From positions 2,601,127 through 2,633,126 of the forward strand of contig NC_004459.3 of the NCBI RefSeq assembly GCF_000039765.1: a stretch of 32,000 nucleotides of DNA, read 5' to 3'. Under the pieces are notes generated by a model. The model was not told where the DNA came from. It did not search any database and saw only the letters and a program-made list of their open reading frames with translations. The stretch is from Vibrio vulnificus CMCP6 (GTDB taxonomy: Bacteria > Pseudomonadota > Gammaproteobacteria > Enterobacterales > Vibrionaceae). Each line of letters opens with the position of its first letter. The stretch's first letter is position 1. Both the position numbers and the translations under genes were made by a program. Positions 9,312 through 27,179 of the stretch are shown in pieces.

Positions 9312-9895
9312 GATTCTAGTTGTCCAAATTGGGTGAGTTCTTCAGGCGTGTTGAGGTTGACGAAACAGTCTGGAGAATCACTAAAATCCACATACTGTGT
9401 GTGACACTCTTTGTAGAGTAAGATGATTTTACGGTCACCGCGTTCTAAAAACGCCGTCAGTTTAGGCAAAACACGTTTGTGATACAGGGTAAAAACAGGT
9501 TGCTGATGATTGCCATCATGGGCAACCAAAATGTCGGTTTCATCCGTCACAGCACGACAAAAGCGCTCCACCAAGTCTTCATTGATACGGGGGCAGTCAC
9601 AAGGAACAAAACCAACCCAATCGGTACTCGCGTGCAGTAATCCGGCATGAATGCCGCCCATAGGACCAGGGAAATTTTGAAAATGATCGCCAAACACGGG
9701 ACCATATTGTTGGTAATCATCCTGATTGCGGTTGGCATTGATCAGAATGTTTGAAGTTTGCGGCGTTAGCCGGTCAATGACGTACTCAATCAACGGCTTA
9801 TTATTTAAGGCGATTAAGCCTTTGTCTTTACCGCCCATTCGGCTAGCTTGGCCGCCAGCTAAAATAACCCAACTAGTGAGTGTTGGTTGTAGCAT
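9308..9895 (-). CDS. mobA: molybdenum cofactor guanylyltransferase MobA
   Basis: [27 protein letters not shown] matches the MobA N-terminal LAGGxxxRMGG-DKG motif. I chose ATG 9895 by alignment with the E. coli MobA N-terminus; the ORF track start is 9931. The gene overlaps the tupC 3' end by 23 nt. Confidence 0.85.
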
Positions 9896-10592: not shown

Positions 10593-10600
10593 ATCACTTC

Positions 10601-11299
10601 CTAAGTTCGCAAATAGCCTTTGCCACGCATACTCGACAGCAAAAAATTCAACACGAGTGCCAAGGTGAGCAGCACAATACCAAGCGCAACACCTTGAGCA
10701 AAGGCGCCCTTGTGGCTCTCCATTGAAATCGCGGTGGGGATGTTTCGCGTCAAACCCATAATGTTCCCACCAACCATCATTGAACAACCCACTTCGGTCA
10801 CAATTCGAGAAAAACCGGTAATGGTGGCCGCCATAAGAGGAAAACGGGTTTCCCAAATCATCGTCCCACTTAATCTTGGCAGAGACACACCAAGGGTTAA
10901 TGCGGTTTCTAACGCGCGGCGATCGCTCGATTGCAACGCGCCATACATCATCGAAACCAACACAGGAAAACAAATCAGCATTTGCCCGAGGATCATCGCT
11001 TTTTGGGTGAACAGCATCTGCCAGTCACCGAGCGGACCTGATCGCGAGAGGAACATGTAAAGCAGCAAACCAATCACCACCGTGGGTACCGATTGCAACG
11101 TGTTCACAAATGAAACCAACAGCCACTTGCCGCGAAAATTGGTGTAGGCGAGGAGAAAAGACAAAAAAGTCGCAGGCAACAGCACCAACAATATGGCAGT
11201 AAGAGAAACGCTAAAGGAGACCGCAACGATCTCCCATAGTTCTTTGTCTAAGCTAAACAGTAAGGCAAAAGCCTCTTGTGTTGTTTGCCAAAGGCTCAT
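10601..11299 (-). CDS. tupB: ABC transporter permease (TupB-like)
   Basis: 232 aa with about 5-6 TM segments, lying between the binding-protein and ATPase genes with 6-nt and 8-nt gaps. Confidence 0.75.
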   Translation of the reverse strand: MSLWQTTQEAFALLFSLDKELWEIVAVSFSVSLTAILLVLLPATFLSFLLAYTNFRGKWLLVSFVNTLQSVPTVVIGLLLYMFLSRSGPLGDWQMLFTQKAMILGQMLICFPVLVSMMYGALQSSDRRALETALTLGVSLPRLSGTMIWETRFPLMAATITGFSRIVTEVGCSMMVGGNIMGLTRNIPTAISMESHKGAFAQGVALGIVLLTLALVLNFLLSSMRGKGYLRT

Positions 11300-11305
11300 T
11301 GATGA

Positions 11306-12124
11306 CTACTTCTGATCTGCATTTGCCACAAACAGTTGCTTGCCATTTAAGCGGAAGCTGTTGATCAGCTCTTGACCACGAGGATTGACCAACCAGTCAC
11401 TGAATGCTTTGGCGCCCTGATAATTGATGCTCGGGTAGCGCTCTGGATTGACCAAAATCACTTGGTACGGGTTGAAGAGTTTTTGATCACCTTCGAACAG
11501 TACCGCAAGATCCAACTTGTTGTTGTAAGCCAGCCAAGTGCCACGGTCTGTTAACGTGTAACCTTGCATTTCTGACGCCATGTTCAGCGTTGGCCCCATA
11601 CCTTGACCCACTGAGCGATAGCCGCCGAAGTTGGGTTCCATCTTGGTTTGAGCCCAAATACCCAGTTCTTTCTTGTGCGTACCCGAATCATCGCCACGTG
11701 AGATAAAGGTGACATTGTTGTCCGCGATGGCTTTAAACACCTCAAGTACGCTGTTGTCTTGAGCAACTTTCGCTGGATCTGCTTTTGGTCCCACGACGAT
11801 AAAGTCGTTGTACATTAGCTTGCGAGGTAACACTCCGTAGCCTTTTTCGACAAAGGTCGCTTCGGCTTTCGGAGCATGCGTCATCACCAAATCCACATCG
11901 CCATTTTCACCCATTTTCAGTGATTTACCTGTCCCTGCGGCCAGCACATCCACTTTATAACCGGTGTCTTTTTCGAATTCAGGCAGTAGGTAATCAAGCA
12001 GGCCAGAGTGATAAGTACTGGTCGTGGTTGCCAAACGCACACGGTGAACATCATCGGCAGAGAAAGAGGAGAAACTCACCAGCGTAATCGACGTTGCCGC
12101 CAAAGTAAGAGCTACTTTGTTCAT
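11306..12124 (-). CDS. tupA: periplasmic tungstate/molybdate-binding protein, TupA type
   Basis: 272 aa with a signal peptide (…SFSSFSA). The N-terminal RLATTTSTYHSGLLDYLLPEFEK contains the TTTS anion-binding motif characteristic of TupA-family proteins, and AAGTGKSLKMGENGDVD is TupA-like. Confidence 0.8.
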   Translation of the reverse strand: MNKVALTLAATSITLVSFSSFSADDVHRVRLATTTSTYHSGLLDYLLPEFEKDTGYKVDVLAAGTGKSLKMGENGDVDLVMTHAPKAEATFVEKGYGVLPRKLMYNDFIVVGPKADPAKVAQDNSVLEVFKAIADNNVTFISRGDDSGTHKKELGIWAQTKMEPNFGGYRSVGQGMGPTLNMASEMQGYTLTDRGTWLAYNNKLDLAVLFEGDQKLFNPYQVILVNPERYPSINYQGAKAFSDWLVNPRGQELINSFRLNGKQLFVANADQK

Positions 12125-12266: not shown

Positions 12267-12282
12267 TGCAAACAAGATGCCA
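12267..12282 (-). promoter_or_regulatory. sigma-54 (-24/-12) promoter of the tupABC-mobA-mobB::moeA operon
   Basis: The minus strand reads TGGCAT-CTTGT-TTGCA against the consensus TGGCAC-N5-TTGCW (one mismatch). It lies about 140 nt upstream of the tupA ATG. Confidence 0.65.
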
Positions 12283-12351: not shown

Positions 12352-12368
12352 TGAGACAAAATGTCGCA
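12352..12368. promoter_or_regulatory. 17-bp dyad, candidate enhancer (UAS) for the sigma-54 activator
   Basis: TGAGACAAAATGTCGCA. The centre is about 80 bp upstream of the tupA -24 element. It is near-identical to the sites at 25270-25286 and 25331-25347, and it lies 20 nt upstream of the regulator's ATG 12388. Confidence 0.55.
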
Positions 12369-12387: not shown

Positions 12388-13893
12388 ATGATTCATTGGT
12401 ACACTATGTCCTATACGTCATTCTGTCTCGAGGAAAGTATGTCTATTCAATTGGATCCCAACTCCGTATCTCAATACCAAGCGTTTTCCGTGTTAGTCGT
12501 CGATGATGAAGTCGGCATGCAGGCCATTTTGAAAAAAGCGCTGGGTAAATGGTTTTCAAAAGTGGATGCGGTAGGCAGTATCGAACAGGCTGAAAAGCTC
12601 AGAGTGACCAACCATTACGACCTAATTGTTCTCGACATCAATTTGCCCGGGCGTTCGGGCATCGAATGGGAAGAAGCCTTCAATGATCCCGAGCGAAAAG
12701 CCGATGTCATCTTTATGACCGGATATGCCGATCTCGAAACCGCCATTACAGCGCTGAAACTGGGCGCGACGGATTTTATTCTTAAGCCGTTTAATCTCGA
12801 TCAGATGCTGCAAGCGGTAAAACGCTGTATGGATCGTCGCCTTAATGCACGCATGCAATATGCGCTCAAACGAGATTATCAACGCAATCATATTTCTGAA
12901 ATGGTTGGGAACTCCGACAAAACCCGCCAGCTAAAGCACATGGTTACACAGTTTGCCCCGTCAAAAGCGTGTGTGCTGATTGAAGGGGAGTCTGGCACTG
13001 GTAAAGAACTGGTGGCTCGTGGTGTTCATCTGGCCAGCGGTAGAACCGGTCCTTTTGTGCCATTAAACTGTGGCGCGATTGCTCCTGAACTGTTGGAAAG
13101 TGAGCTGTTTGGTCATACTTCCGGCGCGTTTACGGGGGCGAAAAAAGCACGTGAAGGGCTTTTCCGCGTTGCCATCGGCGGCACATTATTCCTCGATGAG
13201 ATTGGTGAGATGCCACTGGCGATGCAATCGTCTTTGTTGCGAGTGCTAGAGCAACGCAGTATTCGCCCTGTTGGTAGTGAAAAAGAAATTCCAGTCGATG
13301 TACGCGTGGTCGCGGCAACCAATCGCGATTTACAGCAAGAAGTCGAAAAAGGGCGCTTTCGTAAAGATCTCTATTACCGACTCAACGTGCTGAAAATTGA
13401 AGTACCGCCGCTGCGAGAAAGAAAGGCCGATTTGCAAGAGTTGGTGCCATTCTTCACTAAACAGCTCTCAAGCGAGCTTGCTATGTCTGCCCCGCAATGG
13501 GCGCATGAAGACATCGAAGCCATGCATGATTACAGCTGGCCAGGTAACGTACGTGAGCTACGCAATCTGATTGAACGTTGTATTCTCCTTGGCAAACCAC
13601 CAGCGCATTACTGGCGTGAACTGAATGGATCTATGAACCTGCCAAACGTTTCAATCACCGTTTCTCACAGTGCTGAAGTGCCAACTTTTAAAGAAGGGAA
13701 GAAAGAATTCACCGGTGTTGGCTACCCCAATGATTGGACATTAAAAGAGGTGGAAAAGGCCCATATCCAACAAGTGGTGCACTATTACGATGGCAATAAA
13801 TCGGCGGCATCGCGTGATCTTGGCGTGGCACGCAAAACGTTGGAGCGCAAATACAAAGAGTGGGAAACCGAGGAAGCGGATTATGCAGAGTGA
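12388..13893 (+). CDS. NtrC-family sigma-54-dependent response regulator (REC-AAA+-Fis HTH)
   Basis: Receiver domain (VLVVDDE ... [13 protein letters not shown]). AAA+ domain with Walker A GESGTGKE and the sigma-54 contact loop GAFTGA. C-terminal HTH ([19 protein letters not shown]). ATG 12388 has AAGGAG 6 nt upstream; the alternative start ATG 12439 also has GAGGAAAG. Confidence 0.9.
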
Positions 13894-15916
13894 TCAAACA
13901 CTTTGGTCAACTTGGCGCTATCGCTTTAAAAGTATGGTGCGCTATCGGTTGCTGTTTCTAACCTCAGCGCCGATTTTCCTCACCTTGATTGCACTGATTG
14001 GCATCTCTGTCTATTGGTCGATCCATTACACTTGGAGCAGTGCACTGATTGATGTTTCTGAACGCCTTGGGGTTGCCAATAACAGCATTACGCTATTGCA
14101 ACAGAAGCAGGCTAATTACGTTAAAGCCTTTGCTGAAAGCTATCAGTTTCGCACTCGTATCAATCAGCCAATGGATCAAGACGATCTTCAGCAATGGGTA
14201 CATAAACAGAAAAAGCAATATCAGCTCGATTTTCTCGCTTTTCATCGTGTCGACACCATAGAGCAAAAATTTCGTTTTCTCGATTTAACCAAACGAGAAT
14301 CCTTTTTTGATGTGTTGAGCGAAACGGAGTTACAACGTCTTGATCCAGACTTGGCCAAGCGCGCCGAAGTGCCGATTTTAAAAACGGGCAAAATTGAAAC
14401 GCGTGGCCTCATCAGCCGCACTGTGATTCCAGTGTTTAACCAAAGTAATGATCTGATTGGTTTTCTAGATGGCGGGTTACTACTTAACAACAGCACCGTG
14501 CTCGTCGACCAAATCCGCGACTTGATTTACATCGGAGATGAGGATTCTCTCAGGCCGATCGGTACCGTGACGCTGTTTATGGAAGATCTCCGCGTCAGCA
14601 CCAATGTACCACTAGACAGCGAAGATCAGATTGGCCGTGCGATCGGTACTCGGGTTTCTGGTGAAGTGCATAAATCGGTATTGCAGCAAGGAGAGCGTTG
14701 GGTTAATCGCGCCTTTGTGTATGACGCTTGGTATATCACCGCCTATCAACCCATTCGCGACCAATACAACAACACCATCGGCATGCTCTACACCGGCTAT
14801 TTGATGTGGCCATTTGTTAAAGCGTATCTTACCAACATAGTGGAAATCAGCGTTATTACCTTAACCTTGCTGGTGGTCTCTGGGCTTTTGGTTTATAGAG
14901 GCTCGCGGGATCTTTTCCGTCCTATTGAACGCATTCATAAAGTGGTGAAATTGGTGCAACTGGGCAAAGACAAGCGGATTGGTGCGTTAGGGCTAGATGA
15001 AAACCACGAGCTGGCGCAATTGGCCAAACAGTTTGACAACATGCTCGATCTGCTCAAAACGCGTGAAGAGCAAATCAAACAAGCGGCCAATGAACTGGAG
15101 CAAAAAGTGTTGGATCGCACAGCCAGCCTCAATGAAAAAACCGAGCAGCTTGAGCACCACATTCGATTACTCAATCAAACTCGCGACAAACTGGTCGTCA
15201 ATGAAAAGCTGGCGGCCTTGGGCGAGTTAACCGCGGGTATCGCCCATGAGATTAACAACCCAACCGCCGTGATACTGGGTAACGTCGAGTTGATTCGTTT
15301 TGAGCTCGGTGAAGATGCCGCGCGCGTAGAGGAAGAGATAGAAACGGTGATGGCGCAGATCGACCGAATTCGTAACATCACGCGAAGTTTGCTGCAATAC
15401 AGCCGACAGGGCGGGGTGCAAGATGAGATCATTTGGCAGCATGTCAATCCTATCATCGAAGAGAGCATTACCTTGGTCAAAACTGGCTCTAAAAAACGCA
15501 CCATCGAATTCGTTACTGAGCTCAATGCGCATACGTCCGTTGAAGTGAATCGCCATCAACTGTTACAGATTTTGGTTAACTTACAAATGAACGCCATCCA
15601 TGCAATGAACGGTGAAGGGCGATTGAGCATCACCAGTGAAGATTGGTTGGAAGAAGGGGAAAGCGTGGGTGCGGTCATCCACATTGAAGATCAAGGTTGC
15701 GGCATTAAGCCCGAAAAACTGAGCCGAATATTTGACCCGTTTTACACCACCAAGCGTGATGGAACCGGCCTTGGTCTTTCTGTTAGCCAGAGTTTGCTTA
15801 GCCAATCAGGCGGGGAGATCAAAGTGCGTTCACAACTGGGGATTGGCAGCACGTTTAGCGTCTATCTCCCAAGAAAGAACGAAGCCAAACTGCGTGATAC
15901 CTTGCTGATTCAATAA
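13883..15916 (+). CDS. sensor histidine kinase with a roughly 265-aa periplasmic (Cache/PDC-like) domain, HAMP, HisKA and HATPase
   Basis: Start ATG 13883 (MQSDQTLW...) overlaps the regulator stop by 11 nt; the track start 13790 is rejected. Two TM segments bracket the periplasmic domain (...RAFVYDAWYITAYQPIRDQYNNTIGMLYTGY). H-box AGIAHEINNP, N-box NLQMNAIHAM, G-boxes DQGCGI and GTGLGLS. Confidence 0.9.
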   Translation: MQSDQTLWSTWRYRFKSMVRYRLLFLTSAPIFLTLIALIGISVYWSIHYTWSSALIDVSERLGVANNSITLLQQKQANYVKAFAESYQFRTRINQPMDQDDLQQWVHKQKKQYQLDFLAFHRVDTIEQKFRFLDLTKRESFFDVLSETELQRLDPDLAKRAEVPILKTGKIETRGLISRTVIPVFNQSNDLIGFLDGGLLLNNSTVLVDQIRDLIYIGDEDSLRPIGTVTLFMEDLRVSTNVPLDSEDQIGRAIGTRVSGEVHKSVLQQGERWVNRAFVYDAWYITAYQPIRDQYNNTIGMLYTGYLMWPFVKAYLTNIVEISVITLTLLVVSGLLVYRGSRDLFRPIERIHKVVKLVQLGKDKRIGALGLDENHELAQLAKQFDNMLDLLKTREEQIKQAANELEQKVLDRTASLNEKTEQLEHHIRLLNQTRDKLVVNEKLAALGELTAGIAHEINNPTAVILGNVELIRFELGEDAARVEEEIETVMAQIDRIRNITRSLLQYSRQGGVQDEIIWQHVNPIIEESITLVKTGSKKRTIEFVTELNAHTSVEVNRHQLLQILVNLQMNAIHAMNGEGRLSITSEDWLEEGESVGAVIHIEDQGCGIKPEKLSRIFDPFYTTKRDGTGLGLSVSQSLLSQSGGEIKVRSQLGIGSTFSVYLPRKNEAKLRDTLLIQ

Positions 15917-16001: not shown

Positions 16002-16883
16002 TTATTGACCGCTGAATGCAATTCTCGGTGGTTTGATGCCGTGTTTCTTAAACTCTTTCATTACACGCAAAGTAATGTCGGATTCAAACAGTTTTTCATA
16101 AGCAGTATCCACCACGTAGGCTTTGCAGGTTAACTGGATAGCCAAATAGTTGTCCGTGATCGTCTGTTTCACCAGTACCACCACCGGTTTCGGCAGGTGG
16201 ATGTAACGGCTAGACGAAGCCGCTTCCTGAATCAACTCACGCGCGAGCACAATATCTTCATCCATACCGACATAGAAGGGGATCACCACCTGCATGTCGA
16301 GTGCGCCATAGTTTCCACTGACCGTCACTTCATTGAGAAACTTGTTGTTCGGAATGGTAATGATGTCATCGGTCAGTGTTCTCATTCGCACAGAACGAAG
16401 GCCAATCGCGATGATGTCACCATAGTTGCCTTCGAACGTGACGCGGTCACCCACCTGAAACGGGCGATCAATCATCACCGTCAATCCGGCAATAAAAGAC
16501 GCGGCCAAGTCTTTCAACGCAAAACCAACCGACACCGCCAACGTACCACCAATTAAGGCTAAGATATGGTCGTTGATGCGAAAGCTCATCATAAACACCA
16601 CAAGGCCAGCGGTTAAGTAGATGAAGAACTGTAAGAACGATTGGGTTTTCTGCAACAGCATTCGATACTGCGCAAACTGGCCGCCAATGCTCTCTACCAT
16701 TGAATTCATGAACTTCAACAGTAGCCAAGTAATGGCGATGATGATGACAGAGAAGAACACACCGCTCCAGCGGATCAAGCTGGCAAATTGCTGAATGTTT
16801 TCCATATTGGCGATTTCTTCCGTCGCGAAGGCCGGTGCCGAGATCAAAGCCGCGGCGAATAGCGCGTAGAGTTTCTTATTCAT
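16002..16883 (-). CDS. MscS-family mechanosensitive channel protein (small, with N-terminal signal-like sequence)
   Basis: 293 aa. MNKKLYALFAAALISAPAFA is signal-like. Three TM segments are followed by the MscS pore/beta-domain signature (GGTLAVSVGFALKDLAASFIAGLTVMIDRPFQVGDRV...IPNNKF). The ATG lies 1 nt after the stop of the upstream gene. Confidence 0.85.
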   Translation of the reverse strand: MNKKLYALFAAALISAPAFATEEIANMENIQQFASLIRWSGVFFSVIIIAITWLLLKFMNSMVESIGGQFAQYRMLLQKTQSFLQFFIYLTAGLVVFMMSFRINDHILALIGGTLAVSVGFALKDLAASFIAGLTVMIDRPFQVGDRVTFEGNYGDIIAIGLRSVRMRTLTDDIITIPNNKFLNEVTVSGNYGALDMQVVIPFYVGMDEDIVLARELIQEAASSSRYIHLPKPVVVLVKQTITDNYLAIQLTCKAYVVDTAYEKLFESDITLRVMKEFKKHGIKPPRIAFSGQ

Positions 16884-16884
16884 A

Positions 16885-19254
16885 TTACTTCACCAGCAAA
16901 TGTTGACGATCGAGAACGTTGGTAATGTAGCGGAACCAATGGTCCGAGACGCGAGCTTTATCCTCATTCCAAGCAATAAAGCCACGGCTTTCAAAGAAAC
17001 GAAGTGTACCAATCACTTCAGCGATGCTGAGCTGAGTACACTCGGAGAGCTCTTCGGGAGAGGCCACTTCAAGCTGTACAATTGAACGTAACACCGCCAG
17101 CATCGGTTTAGGCATCTGCTCCAACTCTTTGGATTCCGGCGCATGGAACAAGCGCACCACGACACTATCAGACTCTTTATTGCGTCTTAACGACAAGCGG
17201 AAGAATCGCAGCGCCACTGTTGGGTTACCATCGGAGTAGTGCCACAAAATTCGGTAGAAGCCTTGTTTGGCTCGTTCTTCCTCAGAAGTCTCTTCTTGAT
17301 CCCACTGCTTAGGCACCACAAGGCCATCAAAGCTCAGCGGATTTTCAATATCCTGATTTACGCGGCTATCGAGTAAGGCAGAGATCTGTTTTTCATTCCA
17401 ACGAGGCAAAAAGGAGACCCAATCAAACAGCAGTCGCTCGCCACGAGCGCGATCGACAAAACGCCAGCTTGCTTTCTCAATCGCCATCACAACGCGGTGA
17501 TTTTGTTTAGATCGGCGCAGCAGGTTCGTCAGCTTCATCAGTCCGGCTAAACCACCAACCATGGGCTTCACCAAACGTTGTGCGTTATCAACTGCGATGA
17601 GATACGGCGTTTCACTTTTACGCAAGAACGCTAAAATTTGCACTTCTGTCGACTCTTCTGCCAACCCTAATCCTGTCGCCAACTGTTTCAACAGCTCTGG
17701 GTAACCATCGTAAGGGCAGTTAAGGTAAAGCGGCGTGGCGTTTTTCACTTTGCCAAGTATTTTCTTCAATACCGATGTGGTACCCACACCACGCTCACCT
17801 GACAACACACAAATCGCGGGGCTATCGGTCAACAAATAGCGAGAGAGGTTTTGAATTTCGTCACTGGCGTAGTCAATCCACTCGCTGTCTTGCTGCGGAG
17901 GCAACACATATTGAAATGCCGCATCACCACGAATGCGCACCAGTGAGTCGTTGCCGTCTCGGTTGCTGGTTTGCTTAGCCACTTCGATACGGAAGAGGTA
18001 AGCCAGTGCCTGACTGAACATGGTGTAGTTTGAGAGAGTCGCAATAATGCGATGTTTAAAGTGATGGCTAATCAGCCATACCGCCGAGATTGCGGTTGCT
18101 GGAATATTGAGAATAAAGCTATCTTGGCGTTTGATTGCCCACTGTACCCAGACTGGACGCTCCGTGATGCGATCAACCACTTCAAACACTTTTTTACGCC
18201 ACAGACGCAAAACGGATACAGTGACCAGAACGAACCAGAAGTACAGTGCGCTGTAGATCCAATAGTAAATGGTCCCTTTACCAAGAGTACGAACGGAGAT
18301 TTGTAAAATCACGCCAGCAACAATCGCACTCCACACATAACGTCGAATCGTGGCAAGGCGAAGCGCCACCACGTCTTTACTGGAACTGCGGCTATTGCGA
18401 TAAGCAAATTCAAGAATAAAGCTAATGGCGATGGAACCGCCTAAGATCCACCAAGTGAAGATCTCTAGATACACCAGATGTTGCAAACTCGGCAACTCGG
18501 CCAAAATACGCAAAGAAAGCGTAATCGCCACTAACCAAGCAATAGCGCGGTTTGCGCGGCTGAAGTACCAAATCAAACGCACCCAAAGAGTCGGCGCGTT
18601 GTTGTTATCAAGCTGGCTTTCACGAAACAACGTGATGATGCGTTTGCTGTTCGCCATCCACCACACCAACAGCAAGTACACGGCAAACACTTTCAACCCG
18701 GTCCAAATAACAGGCACTGGGGAAATAAAGGTATTTTTAATCAGAGCGCGAAAGCTTCTTATCTGAAAATGGACCAAATACTCGAGATTCAACTTCGTCA
18801 GTATCAGCTCTTGGCGAAACTGCGTCACGCCATAAGGGCCAAACCCCGTCAACTGCTCTTTGGTCGCGCTATCTGTCAATTGCAACAGCTTGGCCTTGCT
18901 ACTGCCTAAGCTATTGAGGGTGAGGTATTGATTCTCTACCGTTTGCCAATGCTCAGCTGTCGGCGTTTGGCGATATTGCTCGAGCAAACGTTTGAAGGCG
19001 TCACCTTCAGACTTTTGCATGGCGATAACAGCGGTGAGCATTTGATTCACCTTCACCTGATCTTTGGCGCTCATAAAGAGCGGGTCAGGCAATCGGGCTA
19101 AATCAGACTCAACGCTGAGTGCTTGGGCGTTGATCTGAGGTGGTGTCTGTGCAGCATATTGCCATTGGGCAAAGGATGCAGGCGCAAACAGCAGGGTAAA
19201 ACAAACGAATAGACGTAATATTTTTGGCATAAGTTGATCGTAATCTTTAGACAT
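16885..19254 (-). CDS. 789-aa membrane protein of unknown function: signal peptide, periplasmic helical region, multi-TM block, cytoplasmic degenerate P-loop NTPase-like domain, C-terminal winged-helix-like tail
   Basis: Long uninterrupted ORF. N-terminus ...LFVCFTLLFAPASFAQ, with about 6 hydrophobic segments between residues 180-400. The Walker-A-like GERGVGTTS lacks the Lys, and the Walker-B-like YLIAVDNAQ has DN instead of DE. The start is either 19254 or ATG 19230; neither has a strong RBS. Confidence 0.7.
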   Translation of the reverse strand: MSKDYDQLMPKILRLFVCFTLLFAPASFAQWQYAAQTPPQINAQALSVESDLARLPDPLFMSAKDQVKVNQMLTAVIAMQKSEGDAFKRLLEQYRQTPTAEHWQTVENQYLTLNSLGSSKAKLLQLTDSATKEQLTGFGPYGVTQFRQELILTKLNLEYLVHFQIRSFRALIKNTFISPVPVIWTGLKVFAVYLLLVWWMANSKRIITLFRESQLDNNNAPTLWVRLIWYFSRANRAIAWLVAITLSLRILAELPSLQHLVYLEIFTWWILGGSIAISFILEFAYRNSRSSSKDVVALRLATIRRYVWSAIVAGVILQISVRTLGKGTIYYWIYSALYFWFVLVTVSVLRLWRKKVFEVVDRITERPVWVQWAIKRQDSFILNIPATAISAVWLISHHFKHRIIATLSNYTMFSQALAYLFRIEVAKQTSNRDGNDSLVRIRGDAAFQYVLPPQQDSEWIDYASDEIQNLSRYLLTDSPAICVLSGERGVGTTSVLKKILGKVKNATPLYLNCPYDGYPELLKQLATGLGLAEESTEVQILAFLRKSETPYLIAVDNAQRLVKPMVGGLAGLMKLTNLLRRSKQNHRVVMAIEKASWRFVDRARGERLLFDWVSFLPRWNEKQISALLDSRVNQDIENPLSFDGLVVPKQWDQEETSEEERAKQGFYRILWHYSDGNPTVALRFFRLSLRRNKESDSVVVRLFHAPESKELEQMPKPMLAVLRSIVQLEVASPEELSECTQLSIAEVIGTLRFFESRGFIAWNEDKARVSDHWFRYITNVLDRQHLLVK

Positions 19255-19453
19255 AACGAAGAGATTGTAGTCTCAAAAACTGTTCATAATTCAGACAAAT
19301 AGAAATTTGCTGTGAAACTTTATCCATATTCACGTTTCAAATGTCAATGTTTTGTGATTTCAGTCATAAAAATCAAAGCTTGCACTCTGGGGCGTGAACA
19401 AGTAACGTTGCGCAGTTTTTTCTATTTGTTACTGACTCACTAAGGTAAAAGCT

Positions 19454-21046
19454 TTGATTTCTACAGCGAATATCACTCAACAATTTGGCGCTAAGCCACT
19501 GTTTGAAAACATCTCAGTTAAATTTGGCGAAGGCAATCGCTATGGTCTAATTGGGGCAAATGGTTGTGGTAAATCAACCTTTATGAAAATCCTCAGTGGT
19601 GAGCTTGAACCAACGAGTGGTAACGTCAGCTATGACCCAAATGAACGTGTTGCAAAACTGAATCAGGATCAGTTTGCTTACGAAGAGTTCACGGTTATCG
19701 ACACCGTTATAATGGGTCACAAAGAACTGTGGAAAGTGAAGCAAGAGCGTGATCGTATTTACTCGCTGCCAGAAATGAGCGAAGAGGACGGCATGCGTGT
19801 TGCGGATCTTGAAGTCGAGTTCGCGGAAATGGATGGCTACATGGCAGAAGCGAAAGCGGGTGAGCTTCTTCTTGCTGTAGGTATTCCAATGGAACAGCAT
19901 TACGGCCTAATGAGCAGCGTGGCGCCAGGTTGGAAACTGCGTGTGCTTCTAGCTCAGATTCTATTCGCCGACCCAGACATCATGCTGCTTGACGAACCAA
20001 CCAACAACTTGGATATGGATACAATCCGTTGGTTGGAAGACACGCTAAACGCGCGTAACTGCACCATGATCATCATCTCGCACGACCGTCACTTCCTAAA
20101 CTCTGTGTGTACCCACATGGCGGACTTGGATTACGGTGAGCTGCGTGTTTACCCAGGTAACTACGACGAGTACATGACCGCGGCGTCACAAGCTCGTGAG
20201 CGTCTACTCAGCGATAATGCGAAGAAGAAAGCGCAGATTGCTGAGCTACAAACCTTCGTAGCGCGTTTCTCTGCCAACGCATCAAAAGCAAAACAAGCGA
20301 CCTCTCGTGCGAAGCAAATCGACAAGATCAAACTGGATGAAGTCAAAGCATCTAGCCGTCAAAACCCATTCATTCGTTTCGAACAGTCAAAAGAGCTGTT
20401 CCGTAACGCTTTGATTGTTGAAAACCTAAGCCAAGGTTTTGAAGATGACTTGTTCTCAGACTTCAACGCGATTTTTGAAGTGGGTGAGCGTGTTGCGATC
20501 ATCGGTGAGAACGGTGTGGGTAAAACAACTCTTCTAAACACGCTGGCGGGTGTACTCGAGCCACGCACTGGTGAATTCAAATGGTCTGAGAACGCCAACA
20601 TCGGCTACTACGCGCAAGACCACGCACATGAGTTTGCAGAAGACCTAAACCTAATGGAGTGGATGGGCCAATGGCGTCAAGAGGGCGACGACGAGCAAGT
20701 GGTTCGTGGTTTCCTAGGGCGTATGCTGTTTGGTCAAGACGACATCAAGAAGTCGGTAAAAGTCCTATCTGGTGGTGAGCAAGGTCGTATGCTGCTTGGT
20801 AAGCTTATGATGCACAAACCAAACATGCTGCTCATGGATGAACCAACCAACCACATGGACATGGAATCGATCGAATCGTTAAACAACGCGCTTGAGCAAT
20901 ACAAAGGCACATTGTTCTTCGTCTCGCACGATCGCGTATTCGTAGACTCACTGGCAACTCGCATCATTGAAATCCGTGATGGCAAAATCACCGACTTCAA
21001 AGGCACTTACTCTGAGTACCTAAAATCACGCGGTGTAGAAAGCTAA
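19454..21046 (+). CDS. ybiT: ABC-F family ATPase YbiT
   Basis: 530 aa, collinear with E. coli YbiT as I recall it (…[38 protein letters not shown]…). It has two ABC cassettes and no TM domain. A TTG start at 19454 is required: there is an in-frame TAA 12 nt upstream and no ATG that preserves the conserved N-terminus. RBS TAAGGT. Confidence 0.9.
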
Positions 21047-21076
21047 TTTCGCGTTGCGTGCTTAAAAAGATCAAAC

Positions 21077-21106
21077 AAAGAGCCTCACTGAGGCTCTTTT
21101 GCTTTT
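21077..21106. terminator. bidirectional rho-independent terminator
   Basis: AAAGAGCCTC-ACT-GAGGCTCTTT followed by TGCTTTTT, between convergent ybiT (+) and the MCP gene (-). Confidence 0.7.
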
Positions 21107-21155
21107 TCCACTACCTATCGTCACTCAGTCGATGACGGCAAGTAGGTTAGGGCGC

Positions 21156-23018
21156 TCAATACTTAAATTGGGCAACGATCTTTTCCAGCTTGTGGCTAAC
21201 ATCCGACACTTGTTCGCTGCATCGTACAGAGCCAGAGACGATCTCGTAGGTATCCCCCGCAAGCTGCGCAATTTGCGTAATATTGCGGTCAATTTCTGCT
21301 GATACCATTGATTGCTCTTCTGACGCGGTCGCAATCTGCGTGTTCATATCAAACATCTCGGTGATTTGAGTGCTGATGCCTTCAATCGCTTCGATCACAT
21401 GGCGCGTATCCACATTCGTCGTCCGAGCTTGATCGACACTCTCTGCCATTTTGTTGACTGTTTGAGTGATGCCTTTCGTCAGTGCTTGTACGGTGGATTC
21501 AATTTGCAAGGTGGAATCATTGGTTAGGCGAGAGAGCTGACGAACTTCATCAGCGACCACAGCAAACCCTCGGCCACTTTCTCCAGCGCGCGCCGCTTCT
21601 ATGGCGGCATTTAATGCCAACAGGTTGGTTTGCTCTGCAATGCCTTGAATGGCAGAGACAACGGCATTGATTTCGCGGCTTTGTGCTTCAAGTGCTTGGA
21701 TCTGCGCTTGCGACTCTTCAATACTGATGGCTAACGTATCAATTCGCTTACCTGTCGCGTGGGTGAGTTGCAGTGCTTTATCGGCTTCGGTATTCACTCG
21801 TTGCGCATTTTGCGCAGCCGATTCAATATTGGCGGTGATCTCATTGGTCGTCATCACCAGTTCATTCACCGCTGTTGCAACAGACTCGGACTCTAACTTC
21901 TGCTGCTGCGCGTTTTGCATACTTTTCTGCGCTGCTTGCTCTGAGCTGCATGAATTCTCGCCAAGAACGCTCATCACGGACGCCAGCTGTTTGATGTTGT
22001 CATGTAGGTGGCTTATAAAGAGGTCAAATGAACGCGATAACTGCGCAAGCTCATCACTGCCTTTTGCATTCATTCGTACCGTCAAATCTCCGCTACCATT
22101 TGCGATGTCGTCCATCAAGAGGTTAATGGCTTTGATTCTCGAAAGAATACTACGGCCAATGACGTAGAGCAGTGACGACAACAGCGCAACGATCGCCACA
22201 CCCATCCACTGTAAGTAGCTTCGAATATCCGCTGCAGTTTGCTCAACGCTTTGCTTAATGGTGGTTTGCAGATCGGTAATCGCCTGTTCGGTTTTGTGCA
22301 CATTGCTACGCAACGCGCCTCTTAGACCTTCGTTTGCAGTTAAGCCAAGCGTTTCGATCGCGCTGACGTATCGAGATAAGGTGTTGGAATAATCGGTAAA
22401 AGCGGGAGACAAATCGGTTTCAAACTTGGCAAACTGGCGAAGCCCTTCGAGCAGCGCAACCTTGTATTCTTGCGTTGGTTCGGTGACAAAAGTGAAGTCG
22501 TGGTCAAGCAACTGCAAAAACTGCGCGGTAAGCTCTCCATCATTAGCACTGAGTACATTGGTTTTGAGCACGCTGCGTGCAGCAAATAGCTCACTTTGCA
22601 ACGCGTCAATGCTTGCTAGCTGAGCGGCCAATTGATGAAACTGAGTTTGATACTGAGATAGAGTGGTTACAATTTGCTGACGTTGATCGTCAATAGCAAT
22701 CGACTCACTGGCAAGAACGTCTGATAAGTGGTCAATGCGCTGTTGCAGTTGAGAATAGGTATTATCGAAACTCGTCAGGTATTTTTCGCTGCGACGAGCC
22801 AAATAATCTTTCTCGTGTCGGCGAAGCATCAACAGATCAATGGAACTGCTTAAGTTTTCTGTTGAGGCGTGCTCCAAAGAGGACAAATGCTTTGCGCTGT
22901 TGTTCTCATAAATCGCGTAGGCGGCAACGCCTAACAGCAAAGTCACATTGATGAGCAGCAGTTTGGCTCGGATAGAGAATGAAAAGAAAAAACGTTTTTG
23001 AACAGGTGATCCGGACAT
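21156..23018 (-). CDS. methyl-accepting chemotaxis protein
   Basis: 620 aa. N-terminal TM, a roughly 240-aa helical periplasmic region, a second TM ([18 protein letters not shown]), HAMP, and the signalling hairpin [41 protein letters not shown]. Confidence 0.9.
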
Positions 23019-23144: not shown

Positions 23145-23972
23145 TTAACTCTCTTTACCTTTGACATCAAAAATGATGTTTTCACCACCAGTAAAGACTT
23201 GAAAGCGCAAGCCTTTTGCTCGTGCGATGGTGGTAATACCAAATTGACGTGCTAAATCTAAACCCATCTGCGTGACACCAGAGCGAGAGAGCAAAACAGG
23301 GATGCCCATTTGAGCCACTTTGATCACCATTTCTGAAGTGAGACGGCCTGTGGTATAGAAAATCTTATCCGCGCCCGATTCTTGGTTTAACCACATTTCA
23401 CCGGCAAGCGTATCCACTGCGTTGTGACGGCCAACATCTTCGACAAACGAGCGAACTTCATCGCCTTTGCACACCGCACATCCGTGTACTGCACCTGCTT
23501 TTTTGTAGGTATCGTTGTAGTGGGTGAGCGCTTCTAAGGTCTTGTAAATATCCGACTGTTTAAGTGTCACTTGGGGCACTTGATAGTGCTCTAGTTGTTT
23601 CATCACGTTGCCATACATAGTGCCTTGCCCACACCCTGAGGTAACAGTTTTCTTTTTTAAAGCCTGTTCAATGTGTTCTACATTCTCTTTTGTCACTACC
23701 GCTGCGCTGTTGGTTTCCCAATCGATGATCACCGATTCAAGAGAATCAACTTCCGACAAGAAGCTTTGGTTCTTGAGATAGCCCAAAACGAGTGCTTCAG
23801 GTCTCGAGCCCAGTGTCATTAGCGTCACCACTTCTTTCCAGTTCAGAAGAACGGTTAAAGGGCGCTCACAAGCAATTTGCTTAATTAACTTCTCTCCATA
23901 TTCATCGAATACTTCCACTTCAATGGTTTGCAAAGGGTTTTCACTGGTTTTAATAATGTTGGGTTTGACCAC
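23145..23972 (-). CDS. fdhD: formate dehydrogenase accessory sulfurtransferase FdhD
   Basis: 275 aa. It aligns with E. coli FdhD motifs (SGCGQG vs TGCGVCG; VEDVGRHNAVDTL vs HEDVGRHVALDKL; LLSRSGVT). GTG start preceded by AGGAAAAAG. Confidence 0.9.
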   Translation of the reverse strand: MVKPNIIKTSENPLQTIEVEVFDEYGEKLIKQIACERPLTVLLNWKEVVTLMTLGSRPEALVLGYLKNQSFLSEVDSLESVIIDWETNSAAVVTKENVEHIEQALKKKTVTSGCGQGTMYGNVMKQLEHYQVPQVTLKQSDIYKTLEALTHYNDTYKKAGAVHGCAVCKGDEVRSFVEDVGRHNAVDTLAGEMWLNQESGADKIFYTTGRLTSEMVIKVAQMGIPVLLSRSGVTQMGLDLARQFGITTIARAKGLRFQVFTGGENIIFDVKGKES

Positions 23973-24056
23973 TTCTTTTTCCTGCTTGAATGGGTGATAT
24001 CAAGAATCACCGAAGAAACACGTTTGCCAAAGGCGGGGGAACAAAATCAATTCAAT

Positions 24057-24072
24057 AGCAATTACCGTTCCA
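24057..24072 (-). promoter_or_regulatory. sigma-54 (-24/-12) promoter upstream of fdhD
   Basis: The minus strand reads TGGAAC-GGTAA-TTGCT (one mismatch to TGGCAC-N5-TTGCW). It lies about 85 nt upstream of the fdhD GTG. Confidence 0.6.
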
Positions 24073-24140
24073 ATGTCATCTACCGTACGGCGTCTCACAT
24101 CTAACACATGTTACATATGGAAACATTCGCTTTATAACCT

Positions 24141-24156
24141 TGGCTTAGAATTTGCT
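24141..24156 (+). promoter_or_regulatory. sigma-54 (-24/-12) promoter upstream of the DUF3305/DUF3306-like genes
   Basis: TGGCTT-AGAAT-TTGCT, with correct GG/GC spacing. It lies about 100 nt upstream of ATG 24256. Confidence 0.6.
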
Positions 24157-24255
24157 ATTAAACGGCACAAAGCGACGCAACAAGTATGCACCAAGGCCTC
24201 GAATAGGACTAATGTATGTTTAAAGGCAAACGCATAGCAACATGATGGGTGGACC

Positions 24256-24714
24256 ATGTCAAATTCAATAGACGCACAAAGTAATATAGAAAAAAATGAA
24301 TACCTTTGGCCTATAGGCTGCAACCTCGTTGCCCATGAAATTGCCACTGGTATTTGGGTGACCACACAGTGGCAGTTAACGGGTTTTGAGTTAAAGCCAG
24401 AAAGCCACCATAGCCATGTCGTCACGCTTCAGTTGTTCCGTGACGAGCGAACCGACTACCGTTTTAACTTGAGTTCTCAAAACCCGAAACTCTTCGTTGT
24501 GCTTGAGAACGTAGAGGAAACGCCAAAGATCACAACCATCTCGGCATCACAATCGGTGGCTGGCCAGTATATGGATGGCGACTATTTAGTGCTTTCTTGT
24601 GAGATGCCATTGCCAATTCAGGCATGGATGGAAGCGTTTATCGGCCGTCATGGCGAGTTATTAGAAGAGCGCCGCAAGAAACGCAAAGGCGCGGGGCGGG
24701 CAAGTGGCAACTGA
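24256..24714 (+). CDS. FDH-cluster protein of unknown function (DUF3305-like, from memory)
   Basis: 152 aa, soluble, with RBS GGTGGA. The position (between fdhD and the FDH structural genes) and the size match the DUF3305 family as I remember it. I cannot verify this by search. Confidence 0.7.
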   Translation: MSNSIDAQSNIEKNEYLWPIGCNLVAHEIATGIWVTTQWQLTGFELKPESHHSHVVTLQLFRDERTDYRFNLSSQNPKLFVVLENVEETPKITTISASQSVAGQYMDGDYLVLSCEMPLPIQAWMEAFIGRHGELLEERRKKRKGAGRASGN

Positions 24715-25291
24715 TTTTTTCTCTCGCTGGTCCTCTCGTAAGTTAGCGGGAGATAGGCAAAAGCAGCCAAAACAAAGCGATGAAGATATCGCAGCGCACT
24801 CGTCGCTCACCGATGAGCAGAAAAACGCTGTCGAAGAAGACCGCGCATTACTCTCGAACCAGACAAGTGGCAAAAAAGAGGGTGCTGATGAGCAGACGGA
24901 GCAAGAACCTACTATTTCAGCGCTGTTGGCCAGTGAAGCGACGCAAGAAGTAAAAAAAGCGGCACTGCGTAAGCTTTTCCACAGTGAAGAGTTTAACGTG
25001 GTTGATAGGCTCAATGATTACGATCACGACTATAAGTCTTCTATTGGTGCTCTCGCACCCAATGTGGCGCAGACGTTAAGAGAATGGATGAAGCCAGTAG
25101 AGAAAGCGTTGACTGAGGCCGAGCCAGAAAGTGCACCTTGCACATTGGATGGTTCAGTAGCCGTTGATAACGATGAAAGTATTGAGGCGAACAGTGACAC
25201 GCTAACGCAATCTGAGACTCAAGCCCTGACTTTATCTCAATCCGATCTTCCTGCAAATGAAACGCTAGATGAGACAAAATATCCCACATAA
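24704..25291 (+). CDS. FDH-cluster protein of unknown function (DUF3306-like, from memory)
   Basis: GTG start overlapping the previous gene by 11 nt. The N-terminal FFSRWSSRKL motif is followed by an acidic, Gln/Glu-rich low-complexity region. 195 aa. Confidence 0.65.
   Translation: MATDFFSRWSSRKLAGDRQKQPKQSDEDIAAHSSLTDEQKNAVEEDRALLSNQTSGKKEGADEQTEQEPTISALLASEATQEVKKAALRKLFHSEEFNVVDRLNDYDHDYKSSIGALAPNVAQTLREWMKPVEKALTEAEPESAPCTLDGSVAVDNDESIEANSDTLTQSETQALTLSQSDLPANETLDETKYPT
25270..25286. promoter_or_regulatory. 17-bp dyad (distal candidate UAS), embedded in the last codons of the DUF3306-like gene
   Basis: TGAGACAAAATATCCCA. With flanks it matches the tup-region site TGAGACAAAATGTCGCACAT at 18 of 20 positions. 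It lies 61 bp centre-to-centre from the proximal site. Confidence 0.5.
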
Positions 25292-25321
25292 AAAATAGGT
25301 ACATTTTGACGCGGGATGGGA

Positions 25322-25356
25322 AAATTCAATTGGGACAAAATGTCCCAATTGAATTT
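25322..25356. promoter_or_regulatory. perfect 16+16 bp palindrome (proximal candidate UAS / RNA hairpin)
   Basis: AAATTCAATTGGGACA-aaa-TGTCCCAATTGAATTT. The core TGGGACAAAATGTCCCA (25331-25347) matches the shared dyad. The centre is about 90 bp upstream of the -24 element at 25428. Confidence 0.6.
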
Positions 25357-25427
25357 CTCGTCATCGATAGTGCCGTAAAACCCAACAAATCCTACGCTAA
25401 CCGACTGAATAATAAGCGTATAAAAGT

Positions 25428-25443
25428 TGGTATAGCACTTGCT
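25428..25443 (+). promoter_or_regulatory. sigma-54 (-24/-12) promoter of the Fe-S / chaperone / FDH structural genes
   Basis: TGGTAT-AGCAC-TTGCT, with correct GG/GC spacing. It lies about 80 nt upstream of ATG 25521. Confidence 0.65.
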
Positions 25444-25520
25444 AATGCTCCACAACAATAACTGAATTATCAGTATGACCTGCCAATCCTTCGCAGTGTT
25501 GGCCAGTGTGGAACAGAGCA

Positions 25521-27179
25521 ATGATAAAACAACTATTACAGCAATCGACTTCAACCAATGGCAAAGCGCGACTCTATGCGTTTGAAAACACCGTTGAGTT
25601 GGGGAATCTGATACCGCCTACCGTGAGCTATGAAAGCGGTGGTAATACACTCATCGTCGGCCCTAGTGCCATTATTCAAAGTGCAGCCGCACAATTGAGT
25701 CAAATGACTTCGCTAACTTTGCTTTCAACCGATGGCGAGAAAGGCGATGCACAAATCTATTACGCTGATTCCGTTCAGTTGAGTGGTTTTTTGGGCACCT
25801 TTACGGTGCTGGTTGAAAACCAAGGCCAACGTTTGAATCTGGCGAAGGTGGCCATCAATCACGATGTTTTTGATGTGGTTCTGGATTTATCACTTAACGG
25901 CCTCATGTCGGAAGAGGTGCCGGTCCCTGGCTATTATCCTGTTGGGCGTGGCTATCCAAAACTAACGGATGCCCTGCAAGAAATTCCAACCCTAATGGGC
26001 ACGTTCGATAAGCCAAAATATTTCCGCTTAGATACCGATCTGTGTGCGCACAGTTCCCGTGGCGTTAAAGGTTGTGAGCGTTGTGTTGATGCTTGTCCGG
26101 CTGGTGCGTTAAGCAGCCAAGGTTCCGAAAAAACAGGGCATCGAATTGAGATCAATCCGTATCTCTGCCAAGGGGTGGGGACATGTGCCACCAGTTGTCC
26201 GACAGAAGCCATTCATTACGCATTACCTAATCCGCAAGAGACACAAAAGTTCATTGAAAGAACGCTGGCGAACTATGAAAGCGTTGGTGGTGTGAATCCC
26301 ATTATCCTGATTTGCAGCGAACGTCATGAAATGTACAACGTCATGGCACTCAAGGCGCTACCCGACAATGTGATTCCGATTGTGGTGGAAGATCTGCCCT
26401 CTGTCGGCATCGATAGTTGGTTTGCTGCGCTCGTTAATGGTGCAACGCAAGTCTTGTTTGCTGCAAGTCGCCGCATGCCCGCAACGATTCAGCGCGTATT
26501 GAATAGCGAAGTCGCGATCGCACAAGAGCTACTTGGTCAATTAGGCATTGCGAAAGAGTGTATCGATATTCTCTATCTCGAATCATTGATGGAAGGTGCA
26601 CCAGTCCTCTGTACTGAACATTTCGACCTTGCTCTTGGCGATTTGCAAGGCAACAAACGTCAACGATTATTTACTGCACTCGATGCGCTTGCAACCTCGC
26701 GTGTACCAGTAGAAAACATCGTCGCTCTTTCCAGTCATGCTCCCTATGGCGCCGTGTCTTGTGCAACAACGGGCTGTACCTTGTGCATGAGTTGTGTGGC
26801 GGTTTGTCCGACTCGCGCTTTGCACACCGATGGAGAAAGCCCTTCGCTTCAATTTGTCGAGCAAGATTGCGTGCAATGCGGTTTGTGCACCAAAGCCTGT
26901 CCTGAGCAAGTGCTGACACTAACTCCTCGTATGAATTGGGATAAAGAGAGCCGTCAAGCGGCGGTGGTGATCCATCAAGAAAAAGCCGCGGAATGCTTGC
27001 GTTGTCATAAGCCTTTCGCGCCTCAGTCCATGATCACTATGCTACAAGATAAGTTACGTGGTCACTCTCACTTTGCGAATGATGCAGCGCTTAATCGCAT
27101 TGCAATGTGTGAAGACTGCCGTGTCATCGATGTTTTTGAATCGATGGCGGTAAACCCAGAAAACCAACTGAATTACTAG
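25521..27179 (+). CDS. cytoplasmic multi-cluster 4Fe-4S ferredoxin-domain protein associated with FDH
   Basis: About 552 aa with no signal peptide. Ferredoxin motifs: CERCVDACP, CQGVGTCATSCP, CTLCMSCVAVCP, CVQCGLCTKACP. C-terminal CxxC...CxxC pair (CLRCHKPF...CEDCR). The ORF track start GTG 25506 remains possible. Confidence 0.85.
   Translation: MIKQLLQQSTSTNGKARLYAFENTVELGNLIPPTVSYESGGNTLIVGPSAIIQSAAAQLSQMTSLTLLSTDGEKGDAQIYYADSVQLSGFLGTFTVLVENQGQRLNLAKVAINHDVFDVVLDLSLNGLMSEEVPVPGYYPVGRGYPKLTDALQEIPTLMGTFDKPKYFRLDTDLCAHSSRGVKGCERCVDACPAGALSSQGSEKTGHRIEINPYLCQGVGTCATSCPTEAIHYALPNPQETQKFIERTLANYESVGGVNPIILICSERHEMYNVMALKALPDNVIPIVVEDLPSVGIDSWFAALVNGATQVLFAASRRMPATIQRVLNSEVAIAQELLGQLGIAKECIDILYLESLMEGAPVLCTEHFDLALGDLQGNKRQRLFTALDALATSRVPVENIVALSSHAPYGAVSCATTGCTLCMSCVAVCPTRALHTDGESPSLQFVEQDCVQCGLCTKACPEQVLTLTPRMNWDKESRQAAVVIHQEKAAECLRCHKPFAPQSMITMLQDKLRGHSHFANDAALNRIAMCEDCRVIDVFESMAVNPENQLNY

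Follow-up and report, generated by a model that had tools for sequence, protein, structure and literature searches.

Between two operons of the formate dehydrogenase (FDH) locus of Vibrio vulnificus CMCP6 lies a perfect palindrome of 35 nt, and the locus raises the question whether such a palindrome acts in DNA as a protein site, in RNA as a hairpin, or as both. The stretch analysed here (the window) comprises 32,000 nt of contig NC_004459.3 (positions 2,601,127 to 2,633,126), and it was recognised as the Vibrio FDH locus by a gene map based on Pfam and NCBIfam scans; coordinates are counted from its first letter. The palindrome and its accompanying dyads are located in the 3′-end and the 3′ untranslated region (3′-UTR) of the DUF3306 gene (24704-25291, plus strand), the last gene of the DUF3305-DUF3306 operon, and upstream of the gene for a 552-aa iron-sulphur (Fe-S) protein (25521-27179, plus strand), the first gene of the regulated operon. 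On comparison of related sequences, the region 25270-25356 is probably a bacterial enhancer (an upstream activating region) that serves the sigma-54 promoter at 25428-25443; the NtrC-family response regulator encoded in the same locus would bind to it, and its proximal site would double as an RNA hairpin. The promoter elements, the sites with their spacing, conservation and specificity, and the covariation of the RNA stem were observed directly.

Comparison set and scoring

For the comparison with relatives the kinase gene of the locus was used as anchor, 80 Vibrio loci were fetched with one locus per species, and the orthologous genes were placed by tblastn. Counts for the FDH side refer to those 44 of the 80 Vibrio loci which reach the Fe-S gene, with 24 metagenome loci in addition. 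The block alignment of the FDH upstream region comprised 28 loci and the alignment used for covariation of the stem comprised 44 sequences without gaps. Dyads were scored at the 12 consensus positions of TGNGACA-N3-TGTCNCA, with 12/12 counted as perfect. The closest species genome was that of V. floridensis, the kinase of which is 97% identical.

Palindrome and dyads upstream of the FDH promoter

The palindrome consists of two arms of 16 nt each (25322-25337 and 25341-25356), which are 100% complementary and separated by a spacer of 3 nt, as seen both in a repeat search and by reading. Its core is the proximal dyad TGGGACAAAATGTCCCA (25331-25347, centre 25339), the putative main activator site. 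The distal dyad TGAGACAAAATATCCCA (25270-25286, centre 25278) overlaps the last codons of DUF3306 and is a candidate activator site, and a middle, degenerate dyad AGGTACATTTTGACGCG (25297-25313, centre 25305) lies between them, its centre being 27 bp away from that of the distal dyad and 34 bp from that of the proximal one. The promoter TGGTATAGCACTTGCT (25428-25443, plus strand) matches the -24/-12 consensus TGGYAYN5TTGCW without mismatch, and transcription of the Fe-S/FDH operon would start near 25454.

These positions agree with an initial annotation of the window, which had described a perfect 16-bp inverted repeat at 25322-25356 with the shared dyad as its core and a second dyad at 25270-25286 within the last DUF3306 codons; coordinates and letters were confirmed, as was the centre-to-centre distance of 61 bp (25339-25278). 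The dyad centres, which had been placed about 90 and about 151 bp above the -24 element, were measured at 89 and 150 bp upstream of the first T of the promoter (the TGG of the -24 element). Similarly, the earlier estimate of a chance occurrence of about 1e-5 in 32 kb holds: according to base composition the expected number of perfect inverted repeats with 16-bp arms is 7.7e-6 if the spacer has one set length and 8.4e-5 if it may measure 0-10 nt, and the longest arm in each of 20 shuffled windows measured only 8-10 bp. The dyad 17-mer with at most three mismatches gave 4 matches in the window, which represent 3 distinct sites versus 0.05 expected; the third distinct site is located at 12352-12368.

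Conservation of the sites upstream of the FDH operon

The proximal core TGNGACA-N3-TGTCNCA is present upstream of the Fe-S gene in 44/44 Vibrio loci and in the 24 metagenome loci, the latter reaching down to 49% protein identity, with GACA and TGTC invariant in the 44. The promoter is likewise kept in these 44 loci, TTGG.A and TTGC being invariant across loci. The alignment over relatives proposed in the initial annotation, together with its check for loci lacking the palindrome, therefore returned the 17-bp core throughout, although not the 35-nt symmetry. The proximal centre is 78-79 bp away from the sigma-54 promoter in 40/44 loci, and the exceptions are 89 bp (the window and V. floridensis, L001), 90-95 bp (L047) and 101 bp (L062); these differences come close to whole helical turns.

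The distal dyad, of the form TG(G/A)GACAAAATATACCA, precedes the proximal one by 58-62 bp (mostly 61 bp) in most loci. In most species its DNA encodes a protein end ..GQNIPHKK, and in the window and other clades ..ETKYPT or ..ETKYTTQ (one base shifted), each followed by the stop codon, while in L022 and L057 the dyad is located past the stop codon. Since it is kept across frames and in non-coding sequence, the constraint acts on the DNA and not on the protein; protein coding as the cause of its conservation was ruled out because the frame differs between clades.

In the alignment of 28 loci five conserved blocks were identified, namely the distal dyad, the middle block, the proximal dyad, a TAA/CTG block and the promoter. 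The middle block AGGTACATTTTGAC (25297-25313 in the window) contains ACATTTTGAC, which is invariant in the 28 loci. The V. cholerae clade has it at the 27/34-bp spacing as well, and it can still be made out in relatives whose protein identity is 49-67%. It fits the dyad consensus at 8/12 positions, and its half-site GGTACA is that of a dyad near the regulator gene described below. We read the middle block as a third, weaker activator site. Readings of the block as a -35 element or as a site for FNR, CRP or NarP were rejected, judged by eye only, because neither spacing nor half-sites fit. The layout of three sites and promoter was seen in metagenome relatives at 67%, 58% and 49% identity of the Fe-S protein, and was absent in metagenome relatives with 32-35% identity.

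Between enhancer and promoter the block TAAnnnnCTGAT (25398-25410) is conserved, with at least 90% conservation in the TAA and CTG columns. It resembles the reverse of the consensus WATCAANNNNTTR of the integration host factor (IHF) and may be an IHF bending site. The copy in the window (TAACCGACTGAAT) is weaker than in most species and fits the IHF consensus poorly.

Perfect dyads are confined to two regulatory regions, as 64/64 of them in 1.70 Mb of sequence sit in the FDH region or in the region between tupA and the regulator gene. At 11/12 positions 127 matches were obtained, 17 of them elsewhere, and 3 of those 17 are misclassified sites of the tupA side. A dyad-like word GGNGACANNNTGTCNCA (11/12) was additionally observed at a matching place in seven loci (L007:5040, L009:5031, L033:5005, L041:5009, L053:5010, L061:4941 and L076:4947). 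Judged by its offset from tupA, this place is probably inside the mobB-moeA gene; the window has no equivalent.

The second sigma-54 promoter and its dyads

The motif TGGYAYN5TTGCW occurs without mismatch twice in the 32 kb, both times in intergenic sequence and each time with a dyad 78-89 bp upstream. The second occurrence, TGGCATCTTGTTTGCA (12267-12282, minus strand), is directed towards the tupA-like ABC (ATP-binding cassette) transporter and the molybdenum-cofactor genes, and is conserved in most loci. The dyad TGAGACAAAATGTCGCA (12352-12368) is located 78 bp upstream of this promoter and just ahead of the regulator gene; it is kept as GGACAAAATGTC.CA in approximately 75/78 loci together with the minus-strand promoter. 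A further dyad, TGGTACACTATGTCCTA (12397-12413), lies 45 bp from the first, and in the form TTGGTACACTCTGTCCCA it is nearly invariant across Vibrio at +45 bp.

The distances between dyad and promoter on the tupA side cluster at 57, 66-68, 76-79, 88-90, 96-98, 101-102 and 108-111 bp. They fit a period of 10.5 bp (Rayleigh p ~0.003 for 17 distinct values), a value that is indicative only as the loci are related. Neither covarying flanks nor a T-run accompany the tupA-side dyad in the Vibrio loci compared, and no co-directional gene is located upstream of it. Two sigma-54 promoters with a common dyad, one of them beside an NtrC-type gene, have the appearance of the standard signature of an activator's own regulon.

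Covariation of the RNA hairpin

Outside the 17-bp core the arms of the palindrome differ in sequence between clades and their complementarity is kept. At least a dozen different flank pairs were found, e.g., CCGGC/GTCGG, CAGAG/CTCTG, CGGGG/CCCCG, TCAAG/CTTGA, CCGCT/AGCGG and AAAGG/CCTTT, the pair in the window being TTCAAT/ATTGAA. In the alignment of 44 sequences 82.7% of the cells of the 16-pair helix are paired, versus 72.9% with shuffled columns and 38-47% with slid partners, and 0/500 shuffles matched the observed pairing or covariation score. In the flank pairs (columns 13-18 with 36-41) pairing survives two-sided changes in 6-16 sequences per pair, and in five of the pairs in 10-16. RNAalifold returned a matching helix with covariation in its six flank pairs. 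Moreover, the ratio of G.U to A.C pairs is 65 to 9 over entire stems and 25 to 4 when the flanks alone are counted, an excess indicating that pairing matters in the plus-strand RNA and not in duplex DNA or in the other strand.

Behind the hairpin a run of five to eight T follows in 29/44 loci, as in a terminator. A separate terminator scan called exactly this hairpin as the sole terminator-like site in L028 and L003; L067, which has an internal C/C mismatch in the core, gave no call in the scan and is terminator-like by a looser criterion. In most vibrios the proximal site thus appears to form the upper part of the hairpin that serves as intrinsic terminator for the DUF3305-DUF3306 operon. The core dyad occurs without the hairpin extension in 6/44 species, with a weak extension in 5 more, and also without it in distant relatives. 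From the core-only species and the distant relatives it follows that the enhancer came first and was later embedded in a terminator. We also rejected the idea that the extended arms belong to the protein site, as they differ between clades despite being paired and are absent at the tupA site. No Rfam 15 family was found at gathering score in 23900-25700, and a permissive scan of this region gave only sub-threshold matches at chance level.

Hairpin and spacing in the V. vulnificus lineage

In the window the palindrome (25322-25356, plus strand) is predicted to fold into a hairpin in the RNA of the DUF3305-DUF3306 operon, at its 3′-end and beginning 31 nt past the DUF3306 stop codon. The minimum-energy fold of 25292-25380 (89 nt; -35.8 kcal/mol, z = -6.9) contains a helix of ~25 pairs (~25312-25366), which exceeds the 16 bp given in the initial annotation. 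The terminator scan called nothing in the window, where the tail past the full stem reads CTCGTCAT. With the three terminal A.U pairs open the tail becomes UUUCUCGU, a marginal U-tract in which the T-run is degraded to TTTCTCGT, and this makes termination here uncertain. The initial annotation had described a hairpin without U-tract, possibly serving as attenuator or processing element. The first part stands in that no terminator was called and needs correction in that the tail is not wholly free of U once the last three pairs are open; the idea of an attenuator is borne out for the genus by covariation and T-run, and is left uncertain for the window by the marginal U-tract.

The window and V. 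floridensis have AT-rich flanks (AAATTCAAT/ATTGAATTT) in common, and in both the stretch from the hairpin to the TAA/CTG block contains ~11-12 extra bases (~25357-25397; alignment columns 128-139). These extra bases moved the enhancer from 78 to 89 bp away from the -24 element, i.e., by one helical turn. V. floridensis already breaks the 35-nt symmetry with TAGGACA in the left half. The perfect symmetry accordingly looks like a detail of the lineage, and the 17-bp core and the maintained pairing would be the meaningful features.

Regulator and proposed mechanism

The regulator gene (12388-13893, plus strand) is syntenic in the 80 loci and encodes a REC (Response_reg), a Sigma54_activat (AAA+) and an HTH_8 (Fis-type HTH) domain according to Pfam. 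No NCBIfam equivalog cut-off was reached by the protein, whose best matches were AtoC and NtrC. A score of 370 bits versus the NtrC cut-off of 559 means that it is not NtrC itself, and the FhlA model gave 243 bits at a cut-off of 830. The names AtoC, NtrC, ZraR and FhlA were dropped for the regulator as the cut-offs were missed. The partner sensor histidine kinase (13790-15916, plus strand) carries an sCache_3 domain (Pfam).

The true start of the regulator is probably the in-frame ATG at 12439, which follows the good ribosome-binding site GAGGAAAG; in many orthologues the alignment begins only at residue 17-18. With a start at 12439 the conserved second tupA-side dyad (12397-12413) is non-coding. 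The open reading frame of the kinase overlaps the end of that of the regulator by ~100 nt (13790-13893). In other species tblastn matches of the kinase also begin at residue 1-4 and overlap the regulator gene, so that the overlap is either a real long one or a common mis-set start.

From the arrangement of sites, promoters and genes we infer which protein binds, that it activates and that transcripts terminate. The three sites of the type TGNGACA-N3-TGTCNCA would lie at roughly -176 (distal), -149 (middle) and -115 (proximal) from the putative transcription start. The regulator, most likely the protein that binds them, would occupy the dyads as dimers, a 7-N3-7 dyad being the geometry of NtrC sites. 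Upon phosphorylation by the Cache-domain kinase an active ring (hexamer) would assemble over the three sites, and DNA looping, which a bend at 25398-25410 may assist, would bring it to the sigma-54 polymerase bound at the promoter. For the divergent operon of tupA-like transporter and molybdenum-cofactor genes, this regulator would make use of the dyad pair 12352-12368 and 12397-12413. The proximal site is located within the 3′-UTR of the DUF3305-DUF3306 transcript and consequently makes up the upper part of a hairpin in the RNA; with its GC-rich flanks and a U-run, this hairpin would in most Vibrio species act as an intrinsic terminator separating the two operons. In the lineage of the window the flanks would have been replaced by AT-rich complementary sequence, which resulted in the perfect 35-nt palindrome, and ~11 bp would have been gained downstream with the helical phase kept; here the hairpin would be at best a weak terminator or a 3′-end stabiliser.

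Compared with this proposal, the initial annotation had seen a two-site enhancer of NtrC type. The conserved core, the phased spacing and the second promoter bear out the enhancer, while the number of sites is three rather than two and only the central 17 bp of the palindrome look like a protein site.

Several observations weigh against this interpretation. The regulator is tied to the dyad solely by their co-occurrence in the compared loci. The middle site matches only 8/12 positions and yet is the most invariant block, and may therefore have another or an additional role; moreover, with centres 27 and 34 bp apart the three sites do not all face the same side of the helix. The species with core only or with a weak extension show that the hairpin is not essential to the enhancer, and the terminator scan was silent in the window. 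Finally, the Vibrio loci are kin, so that sequence counts exceed the number of events that are truly independent.

Alternative explanations

The dyads could be operators of another factor encoded elsewhere, e.g., one responding to molybdate or tungstate, oxygen or formate. In its favour, it is the neighbourhood alone which links regulator and dyad, and the sigma-54 promoters of fdhD and DUF3305 have no dyad within a kilobase, which is unexpected for the sole activator site. We nevertheless regard such a factor as unlikely, because both dyad clusters are helically phased at enhancer distance from sigma-54 promoters, which need an AAA+ activator, and because the NtrC-type gene is the only regulator gene conserved in the locus, with one dyad cluster abutting its start. 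In addition, the 7-N3-7 geometry equals that of NtrC sites, and by eye no likeness to the consensus of ModE, FNR, CRP or NarL/P was seen. Covariation, G.U usage, the T-run in 29/44 loci and the strong fold in the window could also suggest that the element acts in RNA only, as a terminator or stabilising hairpin whose core is kept for RNA reasons. This is very improbable: terminator stems usually drift, yet here the top 7+7 nt are nearly invariant and only the base covaries. Furthermore, the core recurs without hairpin at the tupA promoter, in the 6 core-only species and in distant relatives, and its distance to the -24 element is fixed.

An RNA function of a different kind, which would be compatible with the enhancer, is a small RNA (sRNA) released from the DUF3306 3′-UTR, with the invariant block ACAUUUUGAC as seed and the hairpin as terminator. 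The position of this invariant 10-nt block ~25 nt upstream of the terminator hairpin would suit an sRNA, and a precedent for 3′-UTR sRNAs from genes controlled by sigma-54 and NtrC exists in GlnZ (bioRxiv 10.1101/2022.04.01.486790). An sRNA is doubtful all the same, as ACAUUUUGAC is equally conserved in species without terminator, resembles the half-sites of the dyad and holds a fixed 27/34-bp register with the other sites; Rfam gave no match, and a V. parahaemolyticus transcriptome preprint mentions no such sRNA for formate genes. That the palindrome arose by chance or is a dispersed repeat of the REP (repetitive extragenic palindromic) or MITE (miniature inverted-repeat transposable element) type might be thought from its length, its AT-richness, its perfection and its intergenic position. 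With an expectation of 8e-6 to 8e-5, a single copy in the 32 kb window in place of the many copies of such repeats, a syntenic position in all relatives, and extended arms that occur in this lineage only, around a universal core, this explanation is hardly credible.

Relation to known systems

Sigma-54 control of the locus has already been published for V. cholerae, and the element is probably an NtrC-type enhancer in an uncommon arrangement. In the glnAp2 enhancer of NtrC (GlnG), as generally known, 17-bp dyads of 7-N3-7 type are likewise arranged in tandem ~100-180 bp upstream of a sigma-54 promoter. There, too, a regulator with REC, AAA+ and Fis-HTH domains oligomerises and acts by looping, with extra weak sites aiding assembly, all of which would hold here as well. 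Differences exist in the half-site (TGNGACA here, TGCACCA for NtrC), in the number and spacing of sites (three at 27 and 34 bp versus two at 32 bp), and in the setting, as here one site overlaps a coding sequence and another is part of a terminator hairpin.

The FhlA regulon of E. coli (fdhF, hyc, hyp) is similar in that formate-oxidising genes are under sigma-54 control with an activating sequence ~100 bp upstream. FhlA differs in sensing formate directly by N-terminal GAF domains rather than through a two-component system, and in its motif. With intrinsic terminators the hairpin shares a stem-loop soon past the stop codon, a covarying stem and, in 29/44 orthologous loci, a T-run; unlike in these, the upper half of the stem is invariant in sequence because it is also a protein site, and in the window the T-run is degraded and the base of the stem AT-rich. 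Inverted pairs of DNA uptake sequences in Neisseria and Haemophilus double as terminators, so that a word recognised by protein is reused as hairpin. DNA uptake sequences are, however, dispersed in many copies, and here the site is an enhancer site at a single locus.

The orthologous V. cholerae locus VC1510-VC1527 (L006 in our set; Dong and Mekalanos 2012, PMC3439928) has four matching sigma-54 promoters. In that work the promoters were mapped and not the activator sites. In comparison with the window, the V. cholerae hairpin is shorter and without clear T-run. The orthologue of the regulator is VC1522, and no description of it as an activator or of its DNA motif was found in the literature searched, the coverage of which was incomplete. 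With the same incomplete coverage, searches for the three-site enhancer, its overlap with a terminator, DUF3305/6 and a formate-sensing two-component system of Vibrio gave only the paper on the RpoN regulon and transcriptome tables; a recent Vibrio transcriptome preprint does not mention the formate genes.

The fdhD and DUF3305 promoters

Two further sigma-54 promoters, those of fdhD (24057-24072, minus strand) and DUF3305 (24141-24156, plus strand), are arranged divergently back to back and kept in ~45 Vibrio loci. No dyad was found in fdhD, the intergenic region or the DUF3305/6 coding sequence of the 44 loci searched. The dyads nearest to these promoters are those of the cluster at 25270-25347, 1.1-1.3 kb downstream, and none is located within ~1 kb.

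In V. cholerae the four orthologous promoters, those of the FDH operon (VC1516-10), the ABC/molybdenum-cofactor operon (VC1523-27), fdhD and DUF3305-6, were identified as RpoN sites by chromatin immunoprecipitation sequencing (ChIP-seq), and expression from them depends on RpoN (PMC3439928). For the FDH operon the RpoN-dependent change is 22- to 64-fold, for DUF3305-6 it amounts to 7- to 11-fold and for fdhD to 3-fold (PMC3439928). Values dropping with distance are consistent with one distant enhancer and prove nothing. Additionally, VC1510-18 and VC1523-24 shift jointly in V. cholerae transcriptomes (PMC5816637).

The three-site FDH cluster might thus be the sole enhancer of the whole FDH locus and serve the DUF3305 and fdhD promoters from 1.1-1.3 kb as well, so that occupancy by the activator and transcription through its terminator site could affect each other. 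We hold this for a speculative and rather unlikely extension of the proposal. If it were true, the bound activator could be a roadblock or an aid to termination, and read-through could evict the activator; either effect would set the order or the ratio of accessory versus structural gene expression.

Other genes of the locus

On the minus strand the window contains mobB-moeA (7533-9311), mobA (9308-9931) and the ABC transporter with its TupA-like binding protein (9873-12124), followed further along by fdhD (23145-23972, minus strand), the DUF3305-DUF3306 operon (24256-25291, plus strand) and the Fe-S gene, all assigned by Pfam and NCBIfam. Behind the Fe-S gene a TorD-like chaperone, a 'formate_TAT' peptide with twin-arginine translocation (TAT) signal, FdhA and FdhB are encoded. 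The section between kinase and fdhD (16002-23018) encodes an MscS-like channel, a 789-aa AAA_22/AAA_16 protein, an ABC-F ATPase and a methyl-accepting chemotaxis protein. In V. cholerae and a number of further species only ~2-4 kb separate fdhD from the kinase, and this section is therefore a lineage-variable insertion inside the regulon.

Implications

As an example of overlapping constraints the locus offers a clean natural case, in which one site is placed within coding sequence in two frames and another within the stem of a terminator, and in which the invariant part (the protein site) and the covarying part (the RNA stem) can be separated by eye. It also calls for caution in sequence scans, since a very long perfect palindrome need not imply a very long protein site. 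The analysis provides a concrete candidate motif, with three sites on the FDH side and two on the tupA side, for an uncharacterised two-component system of Vibrio. Formate oxidation, tungstate/molybdate uptake and cofactor synthesis appear to be under the joint control of this system, and the pathway matters for pathogenic vibrios growing anaerobically and in the gut.

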